A stretch of DNA of 64,000 nucleotides from Bugula neritina (Eukaryota; Animalia; Bryozoa). The stretch's first letter is position 1, and the number at the start of each line of letters is the position of its first letter. The notes under the pieces were generated by a model. That model ran no database searches, had not been told where the DNA came from, and worked only from the letters and a program-made list of their open reading frames with translations. Made by a program: the position numbers and the translations under genes. The stretch is from positions 34,161,504 to 34,225,503 of the forward strand of contig OZ037765.1 in assembly GCA_964035545.1 (NCBI GenBank), given 5' to 3'. Positions 3,001-63,200 of the stretch are shown here, one piece after another.

Positions 3001-6000
3001 ACTAGGATACTGGTGAGGTCTACTGATGGGGTCCAAGTGCCGACCATAGAGTCTAGTGAGTCTGATAATGGTGAGTCATTCTGATAACGGTGAGTCATTC
3101 TAATAATGGTGAGTCATTCTGATAATGGTGAGTCATTCTGATAGTGGTGAGTCATTCTGATAATGGTGAGTCATTCTGATACGGTCTTGTTGAGTCATTC
3201 TAGATCTTTCTATATAAACATCATTATTATACATTTGTCTGATTAGTTCTGTTAGATGAACAGAATATGTTGATACATACATGCTGGGTAAAACATAAAA
3301 CATTGCAAAGCTTATTAATTATAGCAAGTGTTATTTTGATTTTGCTATTACTATCCGTTGACGATATGTATATGAAGGCATCAGTATTAGTTGATGGAGA
3401 CCACTCTAAGGAGTTTCCTGTGAACACAGGAGTAAAACAGGGATGTGTGATAGCACCTACTTTGTTCTCGATTTTCCTCACTGCTGTACTTCAACTAGTG
3501 AGTGAATGTATGCCATCTGGAGTAAGAATCAGATATAGATTTAATGATATTTTCAATGTCAGACGTCTCAGAGCTAAGACGAAGACAGCTACCGAGGCTA
3601 TCCATGAACTGCAGTATGCTGATGATAACATGATCCTGGCTCATTCCGAGGAGGAACTTCAACTTGCTCTCACAGCATTCAATACAGCATACACCTCTCT
3701 TGGTCTAACACTCAATGCCAAGAAGACGCAAGTAATGTACCAACCACACCCGAATACTGAAAGACATGAGGATTTTTCCCTCAAGGTGGGAGACCAAGTA
3801 TTAGACCAAGTCACTACCTTCAACTATTTAGGTAGCTGCCTATCCTCTAAAGCAAACATTGATGCTGAAATAAACCGAAGACTCCAGGCCGCCAGCTCCG
3901 CATTTGGGAGGCTGCAAACACGCATTTTCAACAACAAGGATATATACAGACAGACCAAACTAAAAGTATACAAAGCCATTGTTCTCCCGACACTACTTTA
4001 TGCCTCTGAAACTTGGGTAACCTACAGCCACAACCTGCTGTCCCTCGAGAGATTTCACAACCGCAGTCTCAGGCGAATCCTCGGAGTCAAATGGCAAGAT
4101 AGGCAGACTACTAACAGTGTCCTCGATAAAGCTCAAACTACAAGTATTACTACCATGATTGTGAAGAGACAACTGAAGTGGTCTGGCCATGTGGTAAGAA
4201 TGGATGATAACCGGCTACCAAAAAAGATCATGTACTCTGAGCTGAACACTGGAAATCGCTCACAGGGTGGTCAGAGGAAAAGGTATAAAGACACTCTACA
4301 CGAGAGCCTTAAGCAGTGTTTCATTCGACCACAGACCTGGGAAGTTCAGGCCTTGGACAGAAAAAATTGGAGAACTGTTGTGCATCAAGGGACAGCGATT
4401 TTTGAACAACAACAACGCCAAAAACGAGAGCACAAACGGTTGTTAAGGAAAAGCAGGGAGTTATGCTCTGTTACACACCCACCAGTGACTGACTCTAGTA
4501 ACATTTGTCCTCACTGTGGCAAATTATGCCGATCTCGAATTGGGCTTGTGAGTCACCTCAGAACTCACAACCTCTAGTAGGATTTTACGGATTTTTGAAC
4601 TGGAACGGATTACGGATCACGGCACAGACTAGGGCTTGCAAGCAGACATCATACTCGTCACACGAGGGATTGCTGACACTATATACTATTGTTACTATTA
4701 CTATATGTTGTTATGTATGTATATATTATTACTATTACTATATCATGCTGATATGTATGTATATACTATTGTTACTATTACTATCTGTTGATATGTATGT
4801 GTATATTATTATTACTATTACTATATTATGCTGGTATGTATGTATACTATTATTACTATTACTATATGCTGATATGTATGTATACAGATACAGAGACTTA
4901 CAATGACACATCCTCTACTAAAGCTCATGACACTAAAACCTCATTGAGAGGAGAGAAAGAGAGATCTACTGTATCCATGAAGCCTCCTTTACCAGTGAAC
5001 GGCGCCATCAGGTTTGTTAGTTAACTTACCATAGCATTGCTGCACCTTTAGTCCATGTGTTCTGAAGCTAATGGATAGAGTATTTTATACAGTAACATAT
5101 ATTTAATTACAGAGTGAATTGGGTTTATACTTCAAAGGAACATTGATTCTAACCCTAATTCCATGCACTTTATTCTACAGTAAGGGGAGTGCAATGGGGA
5201 AACCTGTGAGACAGAGCACCCAGTCTAAGTTACCGTGGATGGACAAGTCACTGGAACCAGTGTCTGCTGTAACTCCGCCTACTAAACAGATCTCGTCTGC
5301 TGCACCACACTGGTTGGACAACTCCAAGTCTAACCCTCTCCGGTCTTCTTTAGACGACATGTTGGAGGCTCTGGACAAGTGGGAGCCTGCAGACGTAGGG
5401 CAAGTATTTCAGTAATTTCTCGTTTCTGCTCTCAGTCTAACTTGAAATATATGATGGTTGTTGATTTGATGCACGAGTAATGCTCTGGTGTGTGTCACTC
5501 AGTCACTCAGTTACTACTCTGTTGTGTGCCACTCAGTGACTCAGTTACTACTCTGTTGTCACTCAGTGACTCAGTTACTACTCTGTTGTCACTCAGTGAC
5601 TCAGTTACTACTCTGTTGTGTGTCACTCAGTGACTCAGTTACTACTCTGTTGTCACTCAGTGACTCAGACACTACTCTGTTGTGTGTCACTCAGTGACTC
5701 AGTTACTACTCTGTTTTGTGTCACCCAGCTACTACTCTGTTGTGTGTCACTCACTCATCTCCAACTCCCATCCCGAACCCTAATTTTAAAATTGTGCCAT
5801 TTTTACCTTCTTTGCCACTTATTCCATTATTACCTGTGCCATTTTTACTGGACACCGTTTACCATAGTCTCGGCTACCAGCTATTGCTGACATCTATCTT
5901 CTTTTAGATAATCTATTTTATTGTAAACATGAAACCGTAGCTTGCTTACCATTTATGGAGACATTCTAAATCTTTTCAATGTAGAGCAGTAGAATTTTTT

Positions 6001-12000: not shown

Positions 12001-15000
12001 AAGTGTGCTACTCTCTCTATCTTACTTACCTCTGTACAGAGGTGTAAGTGTGTTATTCTCTCCTTGTTACTTACCTCTGTACAGAGGTGTAAGTGTGTTA
12101 CTCTCTCTATGTTACTTACCTCTGTACTGACAGTATTTTCCCGCAGGCTAAAACAGTACATGTAATGTTGGACAACTCCCCGATATCACCACCTCAAGGT
12201 TTTCTCATCAGGAAAGGTCCTGGAAACTGCTTCTACGACTTCGCGCAGGAGTTGCTCTTCTCCGATATTCTCAGACACATCCAACTGGACTCACAACTCC
12301 CCGAACTCAACAAGTCAGTTACTACATGCATTATACCTGTATACTACTCACCTGTATACTATATACCTGTATACTGTATACCTATATACTACTCACCTGT
12401 ATACTATATACTTGTATACTACTCACCTGTATACTGTATACCTGCATACTGTATACCTGTATACTATATACCTGTATACTATATACCTGTATACTATATA
12501 CCTGTATACTGTATACCTGTATACTGTATACCTGTATACTATATATACCTGTCTACCAGTGCTTTTATTAAATTTCCGTATTTACTCAATTTTGTAGCAA
12601 TGACACAAGTGCAGACGACTCTGAAGATTATGTTATCTCTGGGAATATGCCCAATGGCTGTATCTTTTGCCTCACCACAGCTAGTTTGTTTTGTAAGATA
12701 CAAGTATTAACATGCTGTTTGGAATTGTGTTAATTGAAATGGAAACCCAAAGACATTATAATTCAATTACCATTTATGAATTAATTTGTGGTTTTTGTAA
12801 AGCTACTTTTCTAATGCTATAACATGTCACCATATTTGATATTGTCCTTAATATTTGCAATCAGTTGTTTATCAGTTCCATTTGCTGTCCACTCAATCTG
12901 ACTTGTATTATGTTGGACTAAATGCCATCGAGTTCTTTAACTCTGAAGGAAAGAAAATAGAGTTGGATGAAAATAGTAAGTGCTCTATGATGAATATAGG
13001 TCAACATATAAGTCTGTTACTACACTACTAGTGCTGTGATATATGCAGTAGGCTATACACAGATATTCTATTGTATCTTACGTTGTGTTCCTACTTGTTT
13101 GTGTAGAAATTGAATATAAAACTATTGTTTCCCATAATGGGTGGAAAATTACTTGCTGAAACTTAAGTTTTTTTAAACCGGAACTGATTGGTCAGTTTTT
13201 AGTGTCAGTGTTGCTGACTCATCACTAGATGAGTAATACAAGTGTTCTCTCTCTGTCATTGCAGACATCGCTGCTTACCCAGAGAGCGTGAACGTCTTGG
13301 ATGGTATTGAAGGTGACGTGAGAACACCCGATAAACTAGTCAACGGCATGAATGATACCAACAATGGAGACCACATGTGGCTGGCCCCCATACTCCCTGC
13401 CATCGTACGTTGAGATTCTAGTTGTTTTTGTTTGAATCGGAGTTCCCAAACTATTTCCTCTCCCCTTTTGAGCTGTGCTGTCTCCCCCTAAACCACTTGC
13501 TAATGTGATTCTACTCTGTAGTAATTATGGCCAGCATTACATTGCCAAAGTTATTTTGTTCTGCTCATCATGTCTAGGCCGTTCCATTCCTACAAGCAGT
13601 GTCACTATTTAATAATAATAAACTGAGCAATAGTGTTAATTTCAAACCTTCGGTACTTATTATATAGAGTAAACAGTGAAACTGATAAGTGGTTTTACAC
13701 AATTGAATGATTCTATTACAGGAACACTTACTGTAGTATGAAGGGCAGATTACTCCAAGTAAACTTAATTTGTATTTCATGGGCTAAGATTTGTTACTCT
13801 AGGAAGAACTGTGGGATATATTAAGTTTAGGCTAGCTTACTCATGTGTATAACATAAAATATGAACATATAATTCTTATATAACTGTTTGATTTGTTAGT
13901 TAATTGGCTGATATTTCCTGGTTGTCGCATTCATGTACACCGTACTGAATTAATATCTATTTTCAGACTAATCGTCTTTTTGTCATCTTTGATTACCCGC
14001 AAACTGTGTCTATGATAAAGATATGGAACTACAGCAAAACACCAAGTAGAGGTGTCAAGGATTTTGCGGTGAGTTATCTCCTCTTCTCAATACTTGCTAT
14101 ATCATATACTAGGGAGTTGTGTCCACACTACACCCTAAACTAGGGAGTTGTGTCCACACTATACCCTATACTAGGGAGTTGTGTCCACACTATATCCTAA
14201 ACTAGGGAGTTGTGTCCACACTATATACTATACTGGGGAGTTGTGTCCACACTATATACTATACTAGGGAGTTGTGTCCACACTATATCCTATACTAGGA
14301 AGTTGCGTCCACATTATACCCTAAACTAGGGCTTAGCTTTCTCTACTAGACGCAATGTATCAAGCATATTATGTCAGTTAAATCAGCTGTGAACCAATCT
14401 CATTGGTTGCCTATCTCAGTGTTGATTGGCTGAGTTGTTCCACTTGTACTGGGCTGTATATTATCATTAGTAGTAAGAAATACTGTGATGTCAATTCCAC
14501 CTCATGACATGAGTTGAGTCACTGTGCTACGGACTGACCTGTAATCTTAGTGCATTGACTTCTAGTTTGCATAACTATGAATTAGTATCTTACATCGTGA
14601 ACAGTATGGAGAGGTTATTGCTGTCACAGGCATCTTCAGCTTTAAATAATTTCTATTCAACATGTTTAGTATTTGTATAGCTAGCAAGTTGGCTCATAAA
14701 TTTCTATATTGTTTGACTATATACAGCTCCTAGTAGATGACTTACTTGTCTACAACGGAATGCTGGGTCCAGTGAGGTACGGCAAAGGGATATTACCCAA
14801 TAGTTTAGGACCACAGTCTTTTCAAACTGTCCTCTTCACCAACAACAGGAAGATTAAAGACAAAGTCAAACACACCATAGTCAGGTATTTCACAAGAGTC
14901 ATAGATTGTCAATAGCAAACGCTTTTAGCTGATGAGTCTATTTTGAAAGCTTCAAGAGTTATCATAGAACCTCACAAGCTACCAATATGCTGATACTTAG

Positions 15001-23228: not shown

Positions 23229-39932
<16,704 letters not shown>

Positions 39933-48300: not shown

Positions 48301-51300
48301 AGTCAGCGTGTAGCCATTGTTGTCAGCCAGGGAGGAGGTGTAATTGACACCAATAGGCTGAGAGTAACAAACCAATAGATTGTATATAAACATGCTAAGA
48401 CGTGACTAGGTGTGTGCGTGACATATTGAGTTGTAGTTCTACATATTTGTATAAACCTTACCACATGCATAGTATTATTGCATATGTGTTATATGACCCA
48501 TATATAACACATAATATGTATAAATATTATGTATAAATCATGTAATATATAAACAAGAAGATTGGGTATATTAGTATGGCTATTTCAACTAAACATCTTG
48601 TATTCAATCAATGAATTTATTTTCTATCGCAACTATTGTATACTGCAACGAATTACAGCATATTTCATTCTATTGCAATTTGCATTATGTTAGTGTATTG
48701 CATTCTATTGCATTGTGTTATTGCATTGTATTTTGTTGTATTGCAGTGCACTACACACGCCAGCTGCTGTAACGGAGCGTGTCTAACAGACGCCTTCTCT
48801 CCAAACACTAAAGTGTGCAGATTTGTCCCCTCAGTGCCTCCCCAGGCTGCCTGTAGAGCTAATGGAGTGCGAGTGAGTATATACTTTACTAATAGACTGG
48901 CAGCTAGGCAGCGTCTTAGGTTAGATGTGGCAGCATCAGGAAAGATTAGATGCGGTTAACCACAGAAATGTGTTCTCATAACAACTTGACATGTGGTTAG
49001 AGAGAGAGAGAGAGAGAGAGAGATAGGTTACAAATATAGTAGTAGTAGTTGTGTTGAAGAATGTAGCACAGATTATGGCAGGGAAGAGATACACAACTAA
49101 GAGCTATAGAGTATAGGATGATGTTAGAGTACTACTTGCAGTGCACTGTAGCCTTAGTGCCTACATAGTGTATCAGTACTGGTGGAGCCCCACACTTTGT
49201 GGCTAGCTCTAAGGCAAAGGAAGGAAAAGCACTCTAGTTTTCATCATTTAAATATCAATGATTTCACAAATTTTCCTGGTATTACAAGAAATTCATTAAA
49301 ATATTATTTCAAAAATGCACAAAAGCAGTTTTGAGTGAAATGTCTGCAATATTTGCATAGCAAAGAGGTTATTCAATGTACTGTCAATGGCGTGTTTCAT
49401 GTGGGCACATCCACTCATCATAAGTAAATAGTTGGGTACAGGAAGCTGGGTATATCATGTCATTTCCTTGTTTATATTATGTAGTCAGTATACACATGTA
49501 GTATACTGTAGTATATACATGTAGTATACTGTAGTATACACATGTAGTAGTATACTGTAGTATATACATGTGTATACTGTAGTATATACATGTAGTAGTA
49601 TACTGTAGTATACACATGTAGTATATACTGTAGTATACACATGTAGTATACTGTAGTATATACATGTAGTATACTGTAGTATATACATGTAGTAGTATAC
49701 TGTAGTATACACATGTAGTATATACTGTAGTATACACATGTAGTATACTGTAGTATATACATGTAGTAGTATACTACAGTATACACATGTAGTAGTATAC
49801 TGTAGTATACACATGTAGTACACTGTAGTATATACATGTGTATACTGTAGTATACACATGTAGTAGTATACTACAGTATACACATGTAGTAGTATACTGT
49901 AGTATACACATGTAGTAGTACACTGTAGTATATACATGTAGTAGTATACTACAGTATACACATGTAGTAGTATACTGTAGTATACACATGTAGTATACTG
50001 TAGTAGACTGTAGTATACACATGTAGTATACTGTAGTATATACATGTACTATGCTGTAGTATATACATGTACTATGCTGTAGTATATACATGTAGTAGTA
50101 TACTGTAGTATACACATGTAGTATACTGTAGTATATACATGTAGTATACTGTAGTATACACATGTAGTAGTATACTGTAGTATATACATGTAGTAGTATA
50201 CTGTAGTATACACATGTAGTAGTATACTGTAGTATATACATGTACTATGCTGTAGTATACACATGTAGTATATACTGTACACTCGAATTATATTACATAT
50301 TGTGTATTATTTATTTCAGTGTTCTAAGGATCGGGATTGTTGCTCCGCATACTGTGTATACAGTACAGGAAAGTGTGCATAGGCAATAGTAACACTAACT
50401 CATTCACCAAGAAGCCTTCAATGAATCTCTAGTTTAGAAGGAAGAATTACTAGTTCCCCTAACGCCATGGTTACTGATATTCACAACCACTATCTATTAT
50501 TTATAAATGGAGATACGTCACTCCCTTTACACCGTTAGCATGCCACGATCTCTACACTATTGGAAGTTGTCTCTCCACCCCACTTGTAATCATTTTGCCA
50601 AAGTTGTTATGCATTCTGATTTCTACTGTTACTATAATTTATTTCTGTTTTTGCATAATATTGCTGTAGCTTCAGATATCGCTATTTATAATTATTTTCA
50701 TCATATCAATACCTATTTTATATACTTTAGTCTATTCTTTTGTATGATTGCTCTTTGCGTATACAAATCAGATAATAAATTATAACACTCACTGAAAACC
50801 ACAACTCGTTGCTGACTTGAATCTGCCTCTTCCAGTTGCCGAGACAGCCACGCCAGCTGCTGTCGGCAGACACCACCGTTGTACTTGACCAGCTGCTGGG
50901 CTCCTTCCTCCAGCCCCTCTGAGCTGTTCTGGTCAGGGTTGGAGTTGGCCGCCATGTACTGTTGGCCTGCGAGGTACGCACTTTCATCCTCGGACCTGCC
51001 CAGCACCGAGACGTCGTACGAGTCGAGACATACGAGTCTTATGTTCCGGTATATTCTAGAATAATATCCAATGTCGGGAGATTCCCCGCCACTGGGCAGA
51101 ATGAACTGCTGGACGACCTGACGGTGGGAGAAGTTGTAGAGGTCATGGTTACCTAGCGTGTGATAGACAGGCACACCTGCCTTCGATATCTCCTCCAACA
51201 CCGTCTCCATGGCAACCTCACACTCGTCTTTACACTTGCCGTCAATAAAGTCACCTAGTTGAAGCACAAACTCGGCCTTAAAGTCCTTGAACTCTGCTAG

Positions 51301-51438
51301 AGCGTCTTTGATATGTTGGATGGAGTGACGGTAGAACCTCGGCGTCCCGGAGTACGACTTCGCGTCATCGTGATCAGCATACTGGATGTCCGAAATAACT
51401 CCAAATCGAAACACACTACTTTCAGTATGAGAGGTCAT
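45358..51438 (-). CDS. ADPRM: Mn-dependent ADP-ribose/CDP-alcohol diphosphatase (313 aa; exons 51438-50793, 45653-45358)
   Basis: Metallophosphoesterase motifs DIQYAD, QLGDFIDG, LGNHD, YNGG, H (VVFNH) and GHTH, plus GVIETP. A phase-1 GT-AG junction gives 942 nt. Confidence 0.93.
46310..46441 (+). promoter_or_regulatory. Candidate promoter and non-coding exon 1 of the nested knottin gene
   Basis: CCAAT boxes at 46310 and 46318, TATAAA at 46360-46365, donor G|GTGAGT at 46442, matching acceptor TTACAG| before 47361. Confidence 0.65.
46528..47055. repeat. Minisatellite, ~16-bp unit, in intron 1 of the knottin gene
   Basis: (aggtgtaccctcctag)n. Confidence 0.9.
47372..50382 (+). CDS. Nested secreted double-knottin / conotoxin-like peptide (96 aa; coding exons 47372-47473, 48747-48872, 50320-50382)
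   Basis: MASTKVQLIVLAVIMAVLASQCNA|FPSCKPDYTP^CTTHASCCNGACLTDAFSPNTKVCRFVPSVPPQAACRANGVR^CSKDRDCCSAYCVYSTGKCA*. Both junctions are phase-0 GT-AG (GTAAGT and GTGAGT; TTGCAG and TTTCAG). Confidence 0.88.
49490..50280. repeat. Minisatellite in the last intron of the knottin gene
   Basis: (tacacatgtagtatactgtagta)-like repeats. Confidence 0.9.
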
Positions 51439-52748
51439 TGCAAGCAGGGAATGTCTGCAATATCACACAGATGTTTACAAAATATAAGTGAGCAAAGTGC
51501 TAAATTTTGTTAGACATTTGTTCTAAAAACTGATTTTCAATAAAGTAATCAAATAAATAAAACATCGAATTAAGTTTTACTGAACTATATGATGCATAGA
51601 ATGATATGCAAAGTATTTGAGAGTTGAATTCCCTTGCTTTTAGAGGAGACTACTCCGAAATTATCAGATAATAGCCATGAAAAATATATACCAGCCTAAA
51701 TATTATACACTATACTATACACTACATATACTATATATTATACTATACACTATATACTATATATACTATATATTATACTCTACACTATATATACTATATA
51801 TTATACTATACACTACATACACTACATATACTATATATTATAATATACACTATATGCTACATATACTATATATTATATTATTCACTAATTCACTGATTAG
51901 GTGTAACCTAAAACTATAAAGTACAAGTTACACTCAAACACACTTTCAAATGGTATAAAATGAAGTATAATTATAACATTAACTGAACGAAAATAACTAT
52001 AAAATTAAATCCGCCACACTATCATTATGACTATTAGTGTTACTAAATGTAAATTATAAGAATAAGTATTTGACTTAGAGCTAGTATAGCTTTATTAAAC
52101 TTATACTAACGTTACAGCTATGACTTATAACTATAACTAATTAAGAGTATCAGTATAACTATTACTATGAGTCTGACAATGAGTATGACTATGAGTATCA
52201 GTATGATCATGTGTCAGTATGACATTCAGACTGAGTATAAGAATAACTATAAGTATAAATACTAGTGTTACTATTAGTATAACTATAAGTATAACTTATG
52301 TTCTTATAACTTACAACTTATAGTTTTAGTTATAAGATAATTAAGTATAGGCCTACTGTAGAAATCTAACTCTTACACTTGGAGTTATTGTTAATCGTAC
52401 AGTTACTGTTAGTGTTACACTTACAGTTACTGTTTTAATCTATCTCTAAAAATAACTACAAGTAAAAGCTAGTATAACTATTAGTATTACTTTAACTATA
52501 GTCTTAGCCTATAACTAAAAGTAATACTTATACTATAACTATAAAACAAAGAATAAGAGTCAATAATATTAATTGTAAACTCGAGTTTAAAGTATTACTA
52601 TTAGTATTACTATTAGTACTAGTAGTACAGTAGTAGTAGTACTATTAGTACTAATAGTGATACACTTACAGTTACAGTAAATGTAATACTAAGTCTAATA
52701 CTAATAGTAATAGTAATAGTAATACTGATAGTACTACTAGTAGTATAT

Positions 52749-53055
52749 TGTTATGTTTTTCAGATTTAGGGTTGATATGCTATCCAGAGAGTCTATTTAT
52801 CTAGTATAGAACTGCACCAGGCTAAGTCGAGTGAACGAGTATATTTTATACACAACTATACATTATAAAAACACGATACATTATTTCCAAACAAGTTACA
52901 CATCTAATCTATCTCACACTCTAGCTTCGACTGCGTTAGCAGCGGGAAACTACAATTGCTGCTAACTATCAACTACGCTAATTGGCTATCCATTGTTCCG
53001 GGTCAATTACGCGACCCTACATGTTGTGCTGCTGGTAGTTCCACGAACCACCACA
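52749..53055 (-). repeat. 3' LTR
   Basis: 307-bp direct repeat of 59950-60256, preceded on the minus strand by TGGTGGGGGCGG (PPT-like). Confidence 0.97.
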
Positions 53056-53342
53056 CCGCCCCCACCAGCAGAAAGCCATCTTTCTGATATATATATAAAA
53101 AAAACATTCAATAGTAATTGCATACATCAGTGGACAAATAATACATAATATACAGGAAGAGACATAATAATAGACAGAGTCATTATAACGATCCGTTGCA
53201 TACAATTGGCCAGCTGTAGATAGACGAGGAATACTAGCTAGCTGTGGTGTTAGACAGGGGATAACCTGTTAAGCAGTCAAACATTTACATGACATCTGGG
53301 CTTCTCCCGAGAGGCAGAGTTGGAGTACTCCGAGTAGTCTAA

Positions 53343-54419
53343 CTAGAGTCCTTGTTGGGCACGCCGGTGCTTGGCTTGGCATGTACGCAGTTTCCGTTTC
53401 ATACGGCATACGGATCCCTTGAGCTGGAAGAGTCCTGTTGTAGTGTTAAGTAGGTCTGGTGCCAGCTGGGTGAACTCTTCTTGTAATCGTAGGAGGCGTT
53501 CTTCTACTGTGGCTAGTCGTACCGGGTCGGGGGACGGTGTCCGTCTGCGGCGTAAGGGTGGACTGGGGGACCTGGTCCGTCTCTTCGCCATAGTAGGGGA
53601 GATCTCTCCTTCTTCTGGATACGTAGTCTCCTCGGGGGTGTATGTAATTTGAGGGCGGTCAGACACCAACGGGGATTGTTGGCGGGCGTTGTCTAACACA
53701 CGTTGGAACCCCGAGGATAGAACGGCTAGTAGCATGGCCTTCTTTACCAGAAGTCGTATATGTGTGAGGAACTCCGGGTACAGCTTAGCGTCGACCACAT
53801 AGTTTTCTCCAGGGAAACAGCCCGCCGCTCTGTGTCTGGTGACGGGGTAGGGATACACATCATTGTACCCGCAGGGGCAGAAGGTCAGTAGGAGATGAGC
53901 ATTGACGTGTAGTTTAAGGGAGCGGTGTGAGGCGCAATCTTCACCACAGATCTGGCATCTCGTCCGTCCTCTGGACCCCCAGGCTGTTTCTATTTCTTCT
54001 TCGGTTTGTGGAGACACCCACCGCCAACGGCGGCGTAGTGGCTCAGGCCGATCACCACTAGCATAGTCCTCCGGATACGGAGCGGGAAGTGTTCTATCCC
54101 GTACCCTGGTTGTAGCGGGTCGAGTGTAATCTGAAAAAGTTTCAACAGTGTTAGTACATTACACTGCTGTGTTGTCAGCTTGAACAGCTTGGCAACTCCT
54201 AATTCAGTTACCTCGTAGAGATTAATGATAGTGAATAGTCAGATAGAACCGTATTGCAACGAGATTATAAAAATCTCTAAGTCAAACTGAGTTCTTACTA
54301 CGGTATTTCACTAACCTATCTCCAGCTCGATTGACTCAGTGAGTCAGAGCTGAGCGATGCAATCTAGTTTCGTATTAAGATATAGTTAACTCACCCCACG
54401 ATCTGTTGTCGTAAGACAT
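53343..54419 (-). CDS. Spliced accessory ORF3 of the Gypsy element: zinc fingers, RS/SP-rich tract and coiled coil (~270 aa)
   Basis: Frame is open from the acceptor at 54130 (TACTAAC branch 54156-54150; TTTTTCAG) to TAG at 53343. Phase-compatible donors at 54394 (after ATG 54419) and at 59875 (in gag). Confidence 0.72.
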
Positions 54420-54443
54420 ACTGAATATGTGAAATGGTTTGAA

Positions 54444-57400
54444 CTACTGCTTAGAAACACGTCTACTCTTGACTGCATCAGCGTATGAAAAGATCGAGCA
54501 ACGTGGTTGGGGTGCGTGATTAAGACTTTGTGCACCCGGCGGATGGATTTTGTTTCTACTTCCGCCGATACAAAAGTTGATATTTCTGTGGTGTTGACAA
54601 CTCCCACATTTGCTCGATTCTTTTCTCGTACGGTTTTCCCCTAGACTTTCATGTGTGCCGCTTTTAACGCAGTCACATACGAAGTCCTTCAAGTATGCGG
54701 GGGGTTGCCTCGTACGCTGTCCCCTTTCTAGGGGGGGTGACACGCTTGCCGGTTCGTTAGTAGGGGCCTCTAATGGCGTCTCTACTTCACCGTCAGCAGT
54801 CACCTCTTCTTGTTCTCCGGATGGAGCCCCTCCCTCCGTGAGGGTTTGCACTTCCGGAACCGGCTCGGTTTCTGGAAGTGATGGAATTAGACTTGGCGGT
54901 GGCGGACACGCTTCTGTTGGTAGAAGCTGCCGCTCCTCTCTCACCAAGTTTTCTTCCCGCGGTATGACCACTTCGTATTCAGGTCCATGCCGCCGTCGCC
55001 CGCGCGTTGTTGTCTGCCTTCTGGGCTCTAACAACGGGGGGGCTTCTCCCACTCCGCCGGGGCTAGCCCAATATGGTTTCAAGCGAGACTCATTCTGGAT
55101 AGATACCTGTCCTGAGCGCTCGATCTTGTACGTATGATTGGGCATAGCCTCGACGACCACGTAGGGGCCTACGAACTTAGGCTTCAGCTTATCAGCCTGT
55201 CCGCGGCGCCTACGGTAATTGACCATCCACACCTTATCTCCTCTTTGATAGAGGGGTGGTTCATCGGAATCTTCGTGCCGCACCTTCCACTGCTGTTGAC
55301 GCAGTATCTCGTGTGCGGCCTTCATCCGTTCCACTAGTTCACTGGCATACTCATGGACTGAGTTATCCTGCTCTGGAACGTGATATGTGAGATGGTCAGG
55401 GACACGAGTCTCTCTCCCGAGCATCAAGAGGTTTGGGGTCTCACCAGTACTGGTGTGTGGGGTGCTACGGTATGCACGCATGACTTGCGGCAACACCGTA
55501 TCCCATTCCTCTTGACCTCGTCCAAGGAGGAGACTCCGGAGCGCATCACCTAGCATCCGGTTGTTGCGCTCCACCACCCCGTTACCTTGAGGGTGGTAGG
55601 GGGTGGTCCTGCTCTGATTTACTCCCCAGAGGTGGCAAAGGTCGCTCATCAGTTGAGACTGGAATTGAGCGCCTTGATCAGAGTGTATCTGTTCGGGAAG
55701 CCCAAAATAACAGAATACATGTTGGTCTAGTGCCCTGGCCACTGTTGGAGCTGATGTATCTGGGATAGCCAGAGCATCCGCCCACCTAGTAAAGTGGTCG
55801 GTTAGTACTAGGATCCAATTATTGCCTCTGGGGGTCAGGGGCATGGGTCCGACTAGGTCTACAGCGACTACTTGCCAGGGCCTACCAGCATATAGCCTCC
55901 GCCGTCCTGCTTCACCAGGGGGGCGGCTATGCTTACTGGCCTGGCAGATCTCACACTGTTTGACTCTGAGCCGGACATCACGCTCCATCTGCGGCCAATA
56001 CCACCGGAGTCGTAGTTTGGATATCACTCGCTTGACCCCTGCGTGGGCCTGCTTGTGAGTATCCCAAATCAACTCACGGCGGATGGCTGTGGGGCAGACT
56101 ACCCTCTTCCTTTCCGGGTGTCTGCCGCTGGCAGCTAGAGAGATGGTTAGCAACCCATCCTGCCCGATCCGCAGCGAGTCCCAACGCTGACAGTATAGCC
56201 GGAACTCGGCGCATCCCTGTCGTATGCGTTCCTCACTGGGTCGTCGCCCTTCCCTTTTGGCCCGGTAGATGTCTGCCACGACTCCAGGCAGCTCTTCTTG
56301 GAGCTTCTTCAGCTCTCGAACATTACCGGCCAGTACAGGGTTGGCGCGGAGGTTTTGTACATCCTCCGGGGACTCATCAACCCTTTGCCTGAGTTGACCT
56401 TGATCCCAGTCAAACGGCGCTCCGTGATGAGCCAGCGTCTCCAACTCACATCGTGGGGGACCTCCATCCCTCCTCTCGATGTTGAGACACTGTTTGCAAC
56501 CTCCGTCAGGTCGGCGACTCAACCCATCCGCATTGCTGTGTCTCTTGCCCGGCCGGTGTTCGATCCGGTACGAGAATTCAGCTAGGATTTCGAGCCACCG
56601 GGCGACCTGACTAGAGGGCTCTGCTCTCCTGCACAACCAGATCAGCGAGGCATGATCCGTACGCAGCCGGAACTTCCTGCCATACAGGTATGGTCTGAAG
56701 TGCTTCACTGACTTGATTACTGCCAGCAGTTCCTTGCGGGTAGTGCAGTAATTTCGTTCAGCGGGAGAGAGAGACTTGCTGTAGTAGGCTACTACTACTT
56801 CTCGGCCTTCCTGCACTTGTGACAGCACAGCGCCAACATTCTGGTCACTGGCGTCCGTGTCTAGGATGTACTCCAGAGTGGGGTCTGGGTAGGCCAAGAT
56901 GGGCGCCGTTAGGAGGCAGCCCTTGAGGCGGTCGAACGCTTCTTGTTCGACTGGGGTCCACTGCCACGTCACTCCCTTTGCGGTAAGCCGGTTTAAAGGC
57001 TGGGCTATGCCCGCAAAGTCTGGTATGTATTGTCTGTAATACCCTACCAGCCCCAAGAAAGCCCGGAGTCCGGTCAAGTCTTGGGGGGTGACCCAGTCTT
57101 CTACTGCCCGTACCTTTTCGGGATCCGTTGCCACGCCGTTCCGACCGACAACGTGCCCCAGGTACTTACTTGACCTCCGGCTGCAACAGAGCGCACTTGG
57201 AAGGCTTGAGCTTAAGACCGGCACCTCGGAGTCTCTCGAAAACCTCCTGCAGACGACTGACATGTGTCTCGAAGTCTGGAGAGATTACGATGACATCATC
57301 GAGGTAGACCAGCAGTGTCTTCCAATGGAGTCCGCTAAGGACTTGTTCCATCAGCCTCTGGAAGGTGGCTGGGGCGGAGGTTAACCCGAAGGGCAGCACC

Positions 57401-59016
57401 TTCCACTTCCACAGACCGTCCCGTGTGATAAACGCCGCTTTCTCTTGGGCGTCGGGACTCAGAGGAACCTGCCAATAGCCGCTTAGCAAGTCTAACGTAC
57501 TGAAGTACTTGCTGCCGGCTAGGGCGTCCAATGACTCGTCAATACGAGGTAGAGGGTAGGCGTCCTGTATGGTTACGCTATTGAGTTTGCGGTAGTCCAC
57601 ACAGAACCGCCAACTGCCGTCTTTCTTCCGGACCAGTACGACTGGCGAGCTCCACGCACTATGGGCGGGCTCTATCAGTCCCCGGTCCAGAAGATCCCGT
57701 ACTTGTCGGCTAACCTCCTTCTCTTTCTCCGGCCCCAGCCTGCGTGTGGGCTGCCGGACAGGGACTGTCCCTGCAGTCAGCGGTATTTCGTGTCTGACAA
57801 TTCCAGTCAGTCCCACGTCATGCTCTCCGCTGCTGAACACATCACCGTAGTCGCGTAGTAACTTAGCCATAGCTTGGCGCTCTCTGTTACTCGCGCAGCC
57901 ACCACTGGCTGTTTCGTATAACTCCCGGAGATGTGTTGGGACTGCCCCTCGTCCCTGAATAGGGTGTCGAGGGAGTGCCTCTGTCGCATCACCCAGCGAC
58001 GGGCCTACGTCTCCCTCTTGAACAGAGTGGAAACGGCCCAGCATCGACCCAGCCGGGAGCTTGATAGGCTCGGTAAAGGGGTTGACGCACTGCACTAAGA
58101 TCTCCCCTTGCTCAGTCAGCTGATTCAGACTGCTGGCAAGTTGGATCTTTTCGTGCGCGCCTTCAACCACCCCGAGTCCAGAGATCCGGCTACTGTTCAC
58201 CCTGCAGTGAATGGTAGCCCGGGAGCGGCCTGGTATGGTACGGTTGCGTACCACTTGCACACCTCCCACTAAAGGGCAGCCGAACTTGTCGACGCAGGCG
58301 AGTTCCCGCCCGGACATCATCATTGCAGATCTGCTAAAATCTATGTGACATCCGTGCCGTTTAAGGAACGGCATCCCGAGGATAGCATCCTCCTTGAGCT
58401 GACTGACGATGAACGTCTCTTGGATCGTTTGATCGCGGACTCGTCCCGTCAGCTCAATTATACCATAGAAGGGAAGGCACGACCCGTCAGCTAGGGTGCC
58501 GTATTCCCCTTCGTATGCTTCCATCTCGCCCCTGACCCTAGCACTGAGGGTGTCGAAGAGTTGGCGGCTTAAGAGGTTTGTGGTACAGCCCGAATCAATG
58601 AGAAAAGTAACAGCTTTGCCTTCCAGTTTACCGGGCAAGAAATAGCTGTTCCCATGGGGCTGCACCTGAACTCTCCCTTCAGGCCTTACTCTCGCAGGGA
58701 GTACCTCCCTCGCTTTGGGTCGCGAAGGAGGTCTCTTGGGGCGGTGATAGGTAGGCCTCGGGGGTGCCGAGGCTGGATTCTCAGCTACCTTTGTGTGCTC
58801 CCATCCAGATTCTTGGACTTGTAGCCCTGTGAATCTGTTGTGAAGGGGCATAGAAAAGGTAGCCGCGGGGCGAAGCCCCTTGCTGGTCCGTCGCGGCTGT
58901 TGCCACTGTTGGTTGCCAGTACGCGGTACCCGTCTGGGTGACCTGCGTTTCTTCTTCCCTAGAGGTTTCGTCGGCCCGCGGAAGGTGGGAACATCTGCGG
59001 GCCGCGGTAGTTTAAC
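54444..59016 (-). pseudogene. pol: Pol (protease-RT-RNase H-integrase), broken by one 4-bp duplication at 57164-57171
   Basis: FLIDSG, YLDD, DTDAS, H-H-C-C zinc domain, DLVGP/HSDQG/ERNNR and GPY motifs, split over ORFs 57166-59076 and 54444-57263. Confidence 0.93.
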
Positions 59017-59918
59017 CCCTGATTTAGGAAGGGACAATATCGGCGGAAATGTCCTTGATTTCCGCACTCCCAGCAAAAACTGACTGTTTCTCCCTGTGGC
59101 GGCGCCGATGGCCGCATGGGCTCAGGGGCGGTACTCACTGGGTTTTGTGGTGTCAGTGTTGCTATCAGGTTGGCTAGCATGTCCGTCAGTTGAGTGACTT
59201 TTGATGCCGTCGCCAACTGGGACACGGCAGCCGCGGCGGGGGTTTCCTCCCCTTGTCCCGCGGCCGTGTCTGCGCGGTCTATCTCCACTTGGCGGGAGCT
59301 TCCGCGACTTTTATGCATTTGGTTAGCTAGGAGGTAAGCTTCCCCCTCAGTCAGAGCATCTTCAACGGTGGTGACTCCCCTAGCTAGAAACTGGTGGTGG
59401 AGACCCAGATCGTCGACAGATGCTATGAAAGCGTCGAGGGTGTACCTCTCGCGGTTGACTGGGGGCAAGTCGCTGTACGCGATCTGTGCCAGCTTCATGA
59501 CCGCGGCGGCATGCTCCCGCAGCGGGGTGCGGGGATCACGCCGCAACCTCTGTAATCGGGCCCTGGCATCTGTAGCCGAGAGGCCAAAGCGGGCCCGCAG
59601 AGAAGCAAAGATATTATCAATGTCTACGCCCAGCCCATAGGGCTTTGCTTTGTCCATCAATGCCATTCTAAGCTTCAGCAGGGCCACCCTAGGGGGCCAC
59701 TGAGCGACGTCCATTACGTCGCTAAACTCTTGAATAAATTGTTCCACCTCCTCTTCACCCGTGAAGGTGGGCGCCTTTAACCTGTAGCGGTCTTCAGCTA
59801 GTTCTCGCGGAACCCTTCGCTCTTCTACTACATGGTTAACAGGCATTGTCTCTACAGCATTGTCTCTACGCTCACCTTCGATTGCCGGTGGTTGAGTTTC
59901 AGCATTTTCAGTCTCCAT
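58959..59918 (-). CDS. gag: Gag (319 aa)
   Basis: ATG 12 nt after the PBS; capsid-like APTFTG..VEQFI; zinc knuckle CWECGNQGHFRRYC. Confidence 0.92.
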   Translation of the reverse strand: METENAETQPPAIEGERRDNAVETMPVNHVVEERRVPRELAEDRYRLKAPTFTGEEEVEQFIQEFSDVMDVAQWPPRVALLKLRMALMDKAKPYGLGVDIDNIFASLRARFGLSATDARARLQRLRRDPRTPLREHAAAVMKLAQIAYSDLPPVNRERYTLDAFIASVDDLGLHHQFLARGVTTVEDALTEGEAYLLANQMHKSRGSSRQVEIDRADTAAGQGEETPAAAAVSQLATASKVTQLTDMLANLIATLTPQNPVSTAPEPMRPSAPPQGETVSFCWECGNQGHFRRYCPFLNQGLNYRGPQMFPPSAGRRNL

Positions 59919-59930
59919 CTTGGATGCACT

Positions 59931-59948
59931 ATCCCACCGCTGCCACCA
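59931..59948 (-). promoter_or_regulatory. Primer-binding site, tRNA-Leu type
   Basis: TGGTGGCAGCGGTGGGAT lies 1 nt after the 5' LTR and is complementary to the tRNA-Leu 3' end ...ATCCCACCGCTGCCACCA. Confidence 0.85.
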
Positions 59949-59949
59949 C

Positions 59950-60256
59950 TGTTATGTTTTTCAGATTTAGGGTTGATATGCTATCCAGAGAGTCTATTTA
60001 TCTAGTATAGAACTGCACCAGGCTAAGTCGAGTGAACGAGTATATTTTATACACAACTATACATTATAAAAACACGATACATTATTTCCAAACAAGTTAC
60101 ACATCTAATCTATCTCACACTCTAGCTTCGACTGCGTTAGCAGCGGGAAACTACAATTGCTGCTAACTATCAACTACGCTAATTGGCTATCCATTGTTCC
60201 GGGTCAATTACGCGACCCTACATGTTGTGCTGCTGGTAGTTCCACGAACCACCACA
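59950..60256 (-). repeat. 5' LTR
   Basis: 307 bp; no difference from 52749-53055 found on manual comparison. Confidence 0.97.
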
Positions 60257-63200
60257 ATATAAATATTTCAATGATAAATGTAGAGATGATCAGCTAAGTT
60301 TGAAAGCTAGGTTTCAGATGATAACAAATTAACAATCACAATCACAATGAGTATCAGTATGACTATCACTATGAGTATCAGTATGACTATGACTATGAGT
60401 ATGAGCTACCATGAATTTGAAAGGCCGAGCCTGATAACCAATTTATGAGCTTTGCGACATTACTTTGACTTTTAGCTACATAATTATTAATAATATTACT
60501 ATTAGCATTACTATTACAGTATTAGTATTACTATTAGATTCATACTCATATTCATATTGAACTTGAAGTACAATAATAATAATATAATTGCAGAAAATAA
60601 CTGAATTGCGAGACATTGCCTAGGTTTCTAAAATTAAAAAAGATTCAACTCACTGAATTGGAAAATGATATTCTGAGTTTATCGACTCAAACTATTGCAC
60701 ACCCGAAGAATATAGTCAAGAATATTTAGCCAACTCCTTCAACGATTCAACATTGCTAAATTTTTCGCTTTCGCTTATAGGTTTGCTAAATGCAGCACAG
60801 AATCGGAGACTGATTCGTGCAGCATTTGAATTTATCACATTATTCGAACTTTAAAACCGATAATCATCGCGTTCAGCGACCTTCCACACTCTGTGCTGCA
60901 TTAAGCGATCTCTCTTTACGATGATAAAAGGATTAATAGTTGTCACTACAGTGATCCCTCTTTATCTCACGAAGATACAGATCCTCAAAACCTCAATTCG
61001 AGAAGTAGCAAAACACCCGATTTAACTTGCAGGTCGTTAAATTCGACTATTTTGTTTTTGTACACACATACATCAGCATGTACACACACATATACACGTA
61101 CAGTAAGCCAAGGTCCAAATTCTTCTCGAGACCCATGGAATTTTGTGAGAAAGGATCCGTGAAATACGGAGGGAGGACTTGTTCAAGACTAAAATTTGTG
61201 TATTTGACACATCACTACATTCATTATGAAGTGCAGCCTCTTTCTAGTAGAGTAATAGCCTTTGTTTCATTCACAATTTGCAGTATATATGAACCTCAAC
61301 TATATTCAAGTGGTTAGCACATTATATATTCTATATACGGTACTCTTTCTTGTACACTGTGGACATGTAGGCATATGATGATGGGGCAGCCCCACAACCA
61401 TGTCAAACTGTCACAAGAGAAATCTTTAAGGAACTGAAGCTATCACAACACAACATAAATTGTGAAATACAGAAGTAAGAATGATAACATAGACCGAACA
61501 TTTCTCACTGTGGCACTTTTCTGCAACTTTATAGTATTTGAATATTATCTGTATAGCACAGAATACAAACATCTGTAGCCTATGTATCTTGCTAAAATAA
61601 CTCGGCCATTTTCTAGCAAGCTCTCTCATCCTAGCTAGAACTTCTTGACTCAACCCCAGAATAAATCTCTAGATCTGCCGTCTGAACTGAAGCCCAGTTG
61701 TAAGACTTACAGTCACTTCAGATTCAACTTACATACACTATACGTACATACATGATACGTACATACATACATGATACGTACTTACATACATGATATGTAC
61801 ATACATACATGATACGTACATACATACATGATACGTACATACATACATGATACGTACATACATACATGATACGTACATACATACATGATACGTACAGTGA
61901 GATATTTTGTTCCACAAAGACACCGATGATGAGACATGAGACATGAGACGCTTAGTACCAGCATGTCTTGTGTGATAGTAAGCGTGACTAGATCCAGATG
62001 GCACGCTGTACGACATTTTGCTCTGAAATATACAGACACCATGAGTCACCTTTAATACCAGCAAGTGTCCACTGTAGATATACGATGTTGCTGTTAGTAT
62101 TTAAGTGTTACTGTGCAATATCTACTCTACAAAAAGTAAAATATTTAGGCTATGTATTTTGTGATCTGGCACTATTACTATTAGTATTAGACTACTGGTG
62201 TTACTGTAACTATAAGTGTGTAACTATTACTATATTACTATTTCTAATAGTAATAGTAATACTCAAACTAAATATAATACTAATAGTAACTTATTATACT
62301 TCAATGTAATTAACCCAAGAGTTATAATTCACTGCGAGTATAATTTACTGCGAGTATAATTCACTGCGAGTATAATTCACTGCGAGTATATAAGGTCAAG
62401 ATGCCATCTTGCAGTTGCAAATTTTTCATCATATTATATCTATTCATTGATAGGAGCAATTTTCAGTCAGTTATGACTGGATAATGAGTCAGTATTCTGT
62501 AATAACTACACAATACTGTAATACAGTACTCTCTCCATAGTACTCTCTCCATAGGTCATGATCCATTCTCACAAGATTCCATATAGATCATGAAAAGGGC
62601 TTGGACCTTGTGTTATGTCTTTTTTCGTATGTTTACTTGTTTATGCATGTGTGTTTAGGGACAAAAATGGTAAATTCAAATATTAGGAATTATATTACAA
62701 ACAAGTTGAGCATAACTTGTGTATCACAGCTACAAAACTCTCACCATACGCTTATTCATCTATCCCTTATATAGCCATCGTCATATCAGCTAACAAAGCT
62801 TTGCATTATACCAGCATTTTCACATATCTTCACATTTCTCACTGGTTATAGGCAGTATAGCTAATTTGTCAACTGCAAAGGTACTATATAAACTAGAACT
62901 AATACCAAAGAGTATACATAGCTTGGGTGAATATCATTATTATAAAGGTGATGATAGCCAATACCAAAGAGCATACATTTCAACAACCTATCATATTATC
63001 ATATAAACACTATTACTTGCAGTGCAGCACTAACTAGCACACACTAAAAGGGAAGTCACTTATCCCTTCCTAGTCATAGTGAGAAGATAATCAAGTTAGT
63101 TTATGGAAGATATTATGTAACATATGCAGATAGTGAAGAGTATCTCAACTCACCTGCTGACTTCATTTTAATTCACTGTAAGTATAATTTATTTATTATA

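Follow-up and report, generated by a model that had tools for sequence, protein, structure and literature searches.

The subject of this analysis is a third open reading frame (ORF3) in a Ty3/gypsy long terminal repeat (LTR) retrotransposon of the bryozoan Bugula neritina. It lies in a stretch of 64,000 nucleotides (assembly GCA_964035545.1, contig OZ037765.1, positions 34,161,504 to 34,225,503), which is called the window throughout and whose first letter is position 1. The element occupies approximately 7.5 kb on the minus strand (52749-60256), and ORF3 follows pol in the env position. We report that ORF3 is almost certainly a real gene of the element and is under purifying selection, that it is very probably expressed through a splice which provides it with a short leader from gag, and that its product may act on the RNA of the element itself. 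For this explanation as a whole, i.e. a selected gene, a gag leader added by splicing and a role on the element's own RNA, we put the probability at roughly one half. The coordinates of all features are collected in Table 1.

Conservation and selection

A word-indexed search returned 57 homologues of ORF3 with 44-99% identity, mostly open frames of 220-250 residues and all of them unnamed. When 1.84 billion representatives were searched with a profile, 124 hits reached E <= 0.001, and 63 of these reached <= 1e-10. Within the protein, conservation is strongest in the C-terminal helix (residues 211-260) and in the finger region (81-110) and weakest in the linker (161-200).

Selection among near copies was assessed in runs X1, X2, X4 and X5 out of seven (X3, X6 and X7 were left out). 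These consist of contigs, mostly pieces of about 100 nucleotides, one of the runs being RNA, and they were aligned twice, to the whole element and to positions 53300-54460. The variant counts were taken from the latter alignment and refer to the sites listed. The 17 sites listed for exon 2 comprise 12 synonymous and 5 non-synonymous ones; with approximately 201 synonymous and 585 non-synonymous sites available in this exon, this amounts to a pN/pS of about 0.14. In run X1 alone 16 variant sites fall into the 785 nucleotides of the exon and 19 into the 264 nucleotides of the intron (Fisher p = 2e-4). The 3 insertions or deletions listed are all located in the intron. The homologues and the pN/pS ratio bear out the sequence-only reading of this DNA made earlier in so far as it had placed an accessory gene in the env position. 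The sequence features named in that reading are all present where it put them, and its interpretation is supported in part. A chance reading frame is ruled out by the family of homologues with open frames together with the selection among copies.

The distant relatives keep the whole layout of the protein, namely a zinc module, a linker rich in Pro, Ser and Arg, and a C-terminal coiled coil. Two distant forms (P0195, P0241) possess a doubled zinc module before a single coiled coil. A link to pol is seen in P0310, an ORF of 1460 residues with RNase H, integrase and SH3 domains, whose pol is 50% identical to that of the window over 727 residues. In P0310 the zinc module occupies residues 1077-1174 (hhalign probability 95.5, E 1.6e-8); it is preceded by a spacer of approximately 380 residues without a Pfam hit and followed by an Arg/Ser-Pro tract and a C-terminal helix. 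As pol and module form one ORF in P0310, their association within this pol lineage must be old. A host exon captured recently, the case which the sequence-only reading had named against itself, is therefore not what we see here. A dedicated search yielded no longer forms of ORF3, which is weak evidence; the fused form P0310 belongs to a distant lineage.

It could still be argued that ORF3 is a passenger, i.e. a host gene that was captured or a frame open by chance, without any role for the element, since the annotations of Watersipora subatra and Bugula neritina list distant relatives as ordinary proteins. These annotated genes may, however, themselves be ORFs of elements, and the purifying selection among copies, the open frames of dozens of lineages that are about 50% identical and a pol link that holds in a lineage diverged by 50% make the passenger highly improbable. 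The named members, the group of P0297, P0301 and P0307, are “uncharacterized” or “hypothetical” proteins of the two bryozoans. For this protein family, annotated only as uncharacterized so far, a mobile-element origin becomes likely. In the literature on ORF3s of LTR elements, spliced accessory proteins and bryozoan LTR elements we found no description of the family, supplements being outside the scope of this search.

Expression of ORF3

The frame of ORF3 is open from stop to stop over 271 codons (54158-53346, minus strand; stop codon 53345-53343) and contains no Met ahead of residue 142. The 224 residues given in the sequence-only reading represent the part of this frame which begins at a GTG codon at residue 48; the frame itself is real. 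It was also correct that ORF3 lacks an early ATG and is open back to a branch site and an acceptor: a TACTAAC motif is positioned 19 nucleotides upstream of TTTTTCAG, with no AG in between; the last G of the intron is 54131 and exon 2 would begin at 54130. The pol stop codon (54446-54444) is followed by a spacer of 313 nucleotides and then by ORF3, and read-through from pol into ORF3 is ruled out by stops in this spacer.

Splice donors were scored as the number of matches, out of nine, to MAG/GTRAGT (the slash marks the end of the exon). Just two sites of the entire sense strand score at least 8/9, the donor in gag and a site on the frameshift of pol, and the gag donor is the only one of at least 8/9 that lies in the right phase behind an ATG. 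Translation would start at the gag ATG (59918-16), which has A at -3 and G at +4, and proceed over 14 gag codons into exon 2, giving a product of 276 residues.

Support for the splice is indirect, the joint being readable in a relative. The sequence P0026 starts with MAEEGTELPIPRNE, which is exactly the first 14 residues of the gag homologue P0114, and then continues with D-HTRLT... of ORF3, while P0114 after the same 14 residues goes on as gag (MAEEGTELPIPRNEGEKDN...). The joint in P0026 coincides precisely with the counterparts of 59876 and 54130. At the corresponding place the unspliced relative P0030 reads ..TLL-DHTRLT. Counting all 22 homologues that reach the acceptor, 21 run upstream with text of the intron type and one, P0026, is joined; the pattern [FL][SL] precedes the junction Asp in 21 out of the 21 unspliced ones. 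P0026 is either an RNA contig or a retro-copy of a spliced RNA, and the splice is therefore shown in this relative either way.

A further hint comes from gag. The residues E-G-E encoded at the donor were counted in those 64 gag homologues whose N-terminus is complete, where E14 occurs in 53, G15 in 57 (and Ser instead in another 4) and E16 in all 64. Nowhere else is the gag N-terminus as conserved, and the residues around this spot vary, even in length. The positions of Met in exon 2 differ among subfamilies, the subfamily of the window having no usable ATG in exon 2. Because exon 2 offers no ATG before residue 142, we infer that the copy in the window uses the same splice. Altogether we consider it likely that ORF3 is made by joining 59876 to 54130.

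The sequence-only reading had left expression to either of two donors. Both are found in phase, and each leaves a single G that combines with the AT of exon 2 to an Asp codon (GAT); only the gag donor has gained from the comparison with P0026 and from the E-G-E residues. The second one would follow a mini-exon directly behind pol, with ATG 54419, last exon base 54395, an intron of 264 nucleotides and a product of 270 residues, transcribed from an internal promoter or obtained from a doubly spliced RNA. This route has a perfect GTGAGT, an intron length that is a multiple of three and an ATG with A at -3. Its donor, however, scores 7/9 compared to 8/9 in gag, its leader is absent from all 22 homologues reaching the acceptor, a variant present in two X1 contigs has AT in place of GT at the donor, and on full-length RNA its ATG lies behind gag and pol. 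That the contigs contain no 54395/54130 joint adds weak evidence. We see only a small chance for the mini-exon route.

The predicted protein

The predicted ORF3 protein has 276 residues, is basic (isoelectric point 9.7) and contains 8 Ser/Thr-Pro sites. As had been noticed from the sequence alone, there are two zinc motifs (C68-x2-C71-x12-H84-x3-H88 and C94-x-C96-x12-H109-x4-C114; residues 68-114) and a C-terminal coiled coil with heptads at 215-260. Residues C68, C71, H84, H88, C94, C96 and H109 show little or no variation in alignment A3, which comprises 75 rows down to 21% identity; C114 is not listed among them. When these 75 sequences including the distant relatives are supplied, the 128 residues from 38 to 165 are modelled as one compact domain, with high scores (Table 1). 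The AlphaFold2 (AF2) model of the whole protein is poor (pLDDT 53) and its Foldseek search returned nothing.

No Pfam family is significant for the ORF3 protein. The C2H2 family PF00096 reaches 13.5 bits compared to a gathering cut-off of 25.2, and 3 out of 35 members show it at E <= 1. A sequence search of the Protein Data Bank (PDB) gave no match and a protein atlas search gave nothing significant, its best hits (0.89) being C2H2 clusters. Searches with the domain model were likewise without a significant fold match: the best E was 0.57 for Foldseek against the PDB and 1.2 against BFVD, and none of the 48,161 chains in VIA reached Z >= 5. The sole coherent matches are two-finger C2H2 segments of 50-58 residues to approximately residues 25-80 of the model (Z 3.0-3.7, root-mean-square deviation 2.6-3.5). 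Taken together, the module is probably a double zinc finger within a larger fold for which these searches found no solved match.

Between the module and the C-terminus the protein contains an Arg/Ser-Pro tract, KRRTRSPSPPLRRRRTPSP, which the sequence-only reading had likened to phosphorylated Ser/Arg-rich proteins or to the tails of hepadnaviral cores. The tract is present here (residues 192-210) but it is not a family feature, as a tract of the KRRTRSPSPPLRRRRTPSP type is missing in 32 out of 35 rows of alignment A1. Arg/Ser-Pro-rich tracts recur ahead of the coiled coil in distant relatives. In the helix that follows, 13 out of 14 heptad a/d positions are retained in 25-35 of about 35 rows. 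Conserved Arg-rich stretches are LRRRxRWVS and the tail RLKRRLRARQARHR. A two-copy complex prediction for residues 205-271, made without controls and without an alignment, scored 0.02.

As far as can be judged from the residues, the ORF3 protein is without a signal peptide or a membrane segment. The highest mean hydropathy (Kyte-Doolittle) of any 19 residues is 1.42, located in an amphipathic helix that bears Lys, and the leader is acidic. The sequence-only reading had likewise seen neither a signal peptide nor hallmarks of Env, in agreement with this hydropathy. We reject the reading of ORF3 as an Env protein because of the lack of hydrophobic segments.

A possible role on the RNA of the element

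The spacer between pol and ORF3 is retained only in unspliced RNA. Its predicted fold is stable (z = -3.19, with none out of 100 shuffles as stable), compared to z = 0.02 for a control 3' untranslated region. The TACTAAC branch site is contained in the loop and the 3' arm of a predicted hairpin of 9 bp, which according to this model could damp splicing. Since donor, branch site and acceptor are all near consensus, the genomic RNA would need protection from splicing or from retention in the nucleus. The strength of these signals and a spacer that is predicted to fold stably and exists in the unspliced RNA only are the reasons why we favor a role on the element's own RNA.

The mechanism could be as follows. 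A singly spliced subgenomic RNA, joining gag codon 14 (59876) to exon 2 (54130), would give rise to the basic protein of 276 residues. This protein may enter the nucleus and oligomerise through its zipper, and its fingers and Arg-rich stretches might bind nucleic acid. It would then act on the unspliced RNA of the element, which bears the near-consensus splice signals and the stable spacer fold, and could keep this RNA from being spliced or retained in the nucleus, as CERV does for the element Cer1 and Rev for HIV-1 (human immunodeficiency virus 1). Such a role in RNA export or in the balance of splicing is suggested by analogy and is a tentative proposal, which we think possible.

Several points weigh against the explanation favored here. 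P0026 is one out of 22 homologues reaching the acceptor, and its contig of 5320 nucleotides is RNA or retro-copied DNA. In the relatives, conservation of GT, AG and branch site is deduced from the protein text only. Many of them have a Met in exon 2 (MDDG.., MT..), a possible autonomous start. Neither the 59876/54130 nor the 54395/54130 joint is among those listed in the four runs, and no loose end at 54130 was seen in them; one must keep in mind that their contigs are too short to decide on the presence or absence of splicing. The spacer fold is a prediction from a single sequence. The only structural likeness of the protein is to DNA-binding tandem C2H2 fingers, with nothing pointing to RNA over DNA. 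CERV is likened by layout and logic and Rev by its way of working, neither of them by homology. Finally, the copy in the window is not autonomous because its pol is frameshifted.

The main rival explanation keeps the same route of expression and regards ORF3 as a DNA-binding factor, either a transactivator of the LTR with a role like that of Tat, Tax or Bel1, or an integration tether derived from a C-terminal extension of integrase. This would be in agreement with the structural matches, all of which are two-finger segments of DNA-binding C2H2 proteins such as Kaiso, SALL4, ZBTB38 and CTCF, with the presence of module and integrase in one ORF in P0310 and of ORF3 in the frame of pol here, and with the insertion of the element within AT-rich simple repeats. 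These matches, however, have a Z under 4, within the stated noise of the tool, and the fingers are packed inside a globular domain of larger size. Sequence-specific binding of DNA is seldom achieved by one pair of fingers. In the element of the window, stops and a strong acceptor lie between pol and the module. A DNA-binding factor seems rather unlikely to us.

According to a suggestion of the sequence-only reading, ORF3 could counter silencing by the host, as a suppressor of repression by small RNAs or by chromatin. In favor of such a suppressor, the runs contain the family in great abundance, the identical LTRs indicate a young insertion, and the gene has been retained across diverged lineages. 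The Pfam searches, however, detected no enzymatic or known suppressor domain, and the sequence favors this role over no other one; we consider it improbable. A last possibility is a component of the particle or ribonucleoprotein, i.e. a nucleic-acid chaperone that coats the element RNA like the ORF1 proteins of long interspersed nuclear elements. The combination of coiled coil, zinc motifs and basic tracts and the N-terminus in common with Gag would fit, but Gag already has a CCHC knuckle, and it is uncommon for LTR elements to encode structural proteins besides Env on spliced messages. The chance of a structural component is slim.

Comparison with other elements

In avian sarcoma/leukosis viruses the env mRNA includes six gag codons, the gag AUG being at nucleotide 380. 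The donor of Rous sarcoma virus is at nucleotide 397, just inside gag (PMC7291142). The likeness to ORF3 consists in a major donor just inside gag and a subgenomic message that starts with the gag AUG. The difference is in the downstream gene, which encodes a membrane glycoprotein in the viruses and a soluble basic zinc protein, according to prediction, in the present element. The env of errantiviruses (gypsy, ZAM) is similar in being a third ORF after pol of a Ty3/gypsy element with spliced expression, which was the premise of the sequence-only reading. In contrast, ORF3 has no signal peptide, membrane anchor or homology match to fusion proteins.

The best analogy for ORF3 appears to be CERV of the Ty3/gypsy element Cer1 from C. 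elegans. The Cer1 report (PMC10309623) describes CERV as a nuclear protein which was shown by genetics to be required for export of the genomic RNA. It has 517 residues encoded by five exons, three of them gag exons and one in its own frame, with H, M and G domains and a C4 loop. It further contains a putative zinc motif rich in Cys, a leucine zipper and a proline-directed phosphoserine that is essential. Both genes are ORFs in the env position that share the frame of the polyprotein, and an N-terminus in common with Gag is found on the CERV mRNA and here on P0026. Neither protein shows features of Env or homologues of known function, both have globular domains without a PDB match, and both combine a Cys-rich or zinc motif with a leucine zipper and proline-directed Ser sites. 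They differ in the number of exons, with one splice and 14 gag codons in the present case, and in their domains, H/M/G with a C4 loop compared to a domain of 128 residues with C2H2 and C2HC motifs. The nuclear role is genetically founded for CERV and only predicted for ORF3. A spliced mRNA that starts with gag codons, as in CERV, is observed in the relative P0026; the copy in the window shows the signals only. The layout of P0310 corresponds to that of the Cer1 polyprotein with the C-terminal part of CERV.

HIV-1 Rev, summarized as an export factor in the same paper (PMC10309623), resembles ORF3 in its way of working only and is not related in sequence. Within this limit the resemblance covers a small basic protein made from spliced RNA, stretches rich in Arg (one of which contains Trp), a helix predicted to oligomerise, and an RNA structure retained only in the unspliced genome, which is a prediction in our case.

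More generally, spliced messages are the typical source of ORF3 products in LTR elements (PMC5408684). Third or “additional” ORFs other than env are known from bdelloid rotifers (PMC5408684) and plants (PMC7264820), some of them with coiled coils and without a known role. Those described in these two sources encode GDSL lipases, DEDDy exonucleases, or transmembrane or coiled-coil proteins, and none is reported there with the zinc module of ORF3.

Accessory proteins made from spliced RNAs are a hallmark of complex retroviruses. Among LTR retrotransposons, CERV of Cer1 (2023) is the only worked-out case that we found. ORF3 would add a second, unrelated-looking case in another animal phylum, and it brings along a large and diverse sequence family and a confidently modelled domain without a match to a known fold. 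As it provides a well-defined splice for testing, the protection of genomic RNA in retrotransposons with strong splice sites becomes testable outside nematodes. One may go further and imagine an entire clade of Ty3/gypsy elements, spread over bryozoans and further marine invertebrates, as “complex” retroelements, in which a Rev/CERV-like zinc-finger and leucine-zipper protein of undescribed fold, with a leader from gag, binds the spacer RNA and balances the spliced message against the exported genomic RNA, an independent invention of retroviral post-transcriptional control. This is speculation, and we doubt that it will hold in full.

The element and its surroundings

The Pfam domains of pol occur in the order PF13650, PF00078, PF17919/PF17917, PF17921 and PF00665, i.e. 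protease, then reverse transcriptase, then RNase H, then integrase, and the element is therefore Ty3/gypsy. This identity, already given by the sequence-only reading, is supported by the domain order and the identical LTRs. As the LTRs are identical the insertion must be young. ATAT is present on both flanks and could represent a target duplication of 4 bp, which is uncertain because the flanking DNA is AT-rich. A homologue search with gag gave 129 homologues at E <= 0.001. Two of the gag homologues, P0064 and P0178, also hold pol domains (RNase H in P0064, the integrase core in P0178) and may derive from internally deleted copies of the family. Scans of metagenome contigs with the ORF3 alignment A1 and the gag alignment A2 and a scan of viral contigs gave pattern matches, among which no relative was confirmed.

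Table 1. Features of the Ty3/gypsy element, in positions of the window
Feature	Position	Strand	Remarks
5' LTR	59950..60256	-	307 bp, TGTGG...TAACA, 100% identity with 3' LTR
Primer-binding-site-like TGGTGGCAGCGGTGGGA	59932..59948	-	TGG-initiated, 1 base after 5' LTR; putative priming by tRNA
gag	58959..59918	-	319 residues, CCHC knuckle CWECGNQGHFRRYC; ATG 59918-59916
Favored donor GAA G/GT	59874..59879	-	last exon base 59876, after gag codon 14; AAG/GTGAGC, 8/9
pol, first frame (protease, reverse transcriptase)	57166..59121	-	stop at 57166-57168
pol, second frame (RNase H, integrase with H2C2, core and SH3)	54444..57284	-	frame shared with ORF3
Mini-exon and donor GGG/GTGAGT	54393..54419	-	ATG 54419-17, 8 codons (MSYDNRSW) + G; 7/9; unsupported alternative
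Spacer between pol and ORF3	54131..54443	-	present only in unspliced RNA; predicted fold z = -3.19
Branch site TACTAAC (54156-54150), T-rich tract, acceptor CAG ending at 54131	54131..54156	-	sequence inspection
ORF3 exon 2	53343..54130	-	2 bases + 261 codons + stop at 53343-53345
Globular zinc-finger module	53664..54047	-	P0001 residues 38-165; AF2 pLDDT 94.6, pTM 0.86
Two zinc motifs	53817..53957	-	intact in 31/40 (first) and 35/38 (second) close homologues
Arg/Ser-Pro tract KRRTRSPSPPLRRRRTPSP	53529..53585	-	residues 192-210, variable linker; subfamily-specific
C-terminal heptad helix, leucine-zipper-like, then basic tail	53379..53516	-	residues 215-260; most conserved part
Polypurine-like tract GGTGGGGGCGG	53056..53066	-	abuts 3' LTR
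3' LTR	52749..53055	-	307 bp, identical to 5' LTR

The two frames of pol overlap at 57163-57284 (minus strand), and the frameshift with the stop at 57166-57168 falls after the palm of the reverse transcriptase. A GTAAGT located on this stop matches the donor consensus at 8/9. At the frameshift most of the depth in runs X1, X4 and X5 has the form of the window and a minority is a short length variant. Given that the form of the window dominates in these runs and that the LTRs are identical, a pol-defective lineage seems to have spread.

The element, with 52-57% GC, is inserted in simple-repeat DNA of approximately 36% GC. It is flanked by AT-rich tandem repeats at 50020-50272, 51682-51887 and 61703-61930, with units of about 23-26, 9-35 and 19 bases, respectively. 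The host and other content of the window is found at 31870-38424 (plus strand), 12093-12710 (plus), 50713-51462 (minus) and 3243-4577 (plus), and comprises exons of the SNRNP200/Brr2 helicase, a piece of DUF4457, a metallophosphatase piece and another reverse-transcriptase fragment. The SNRNP200 exon in the window is very near to the human protein (E 5e-70), as befits an animal host.

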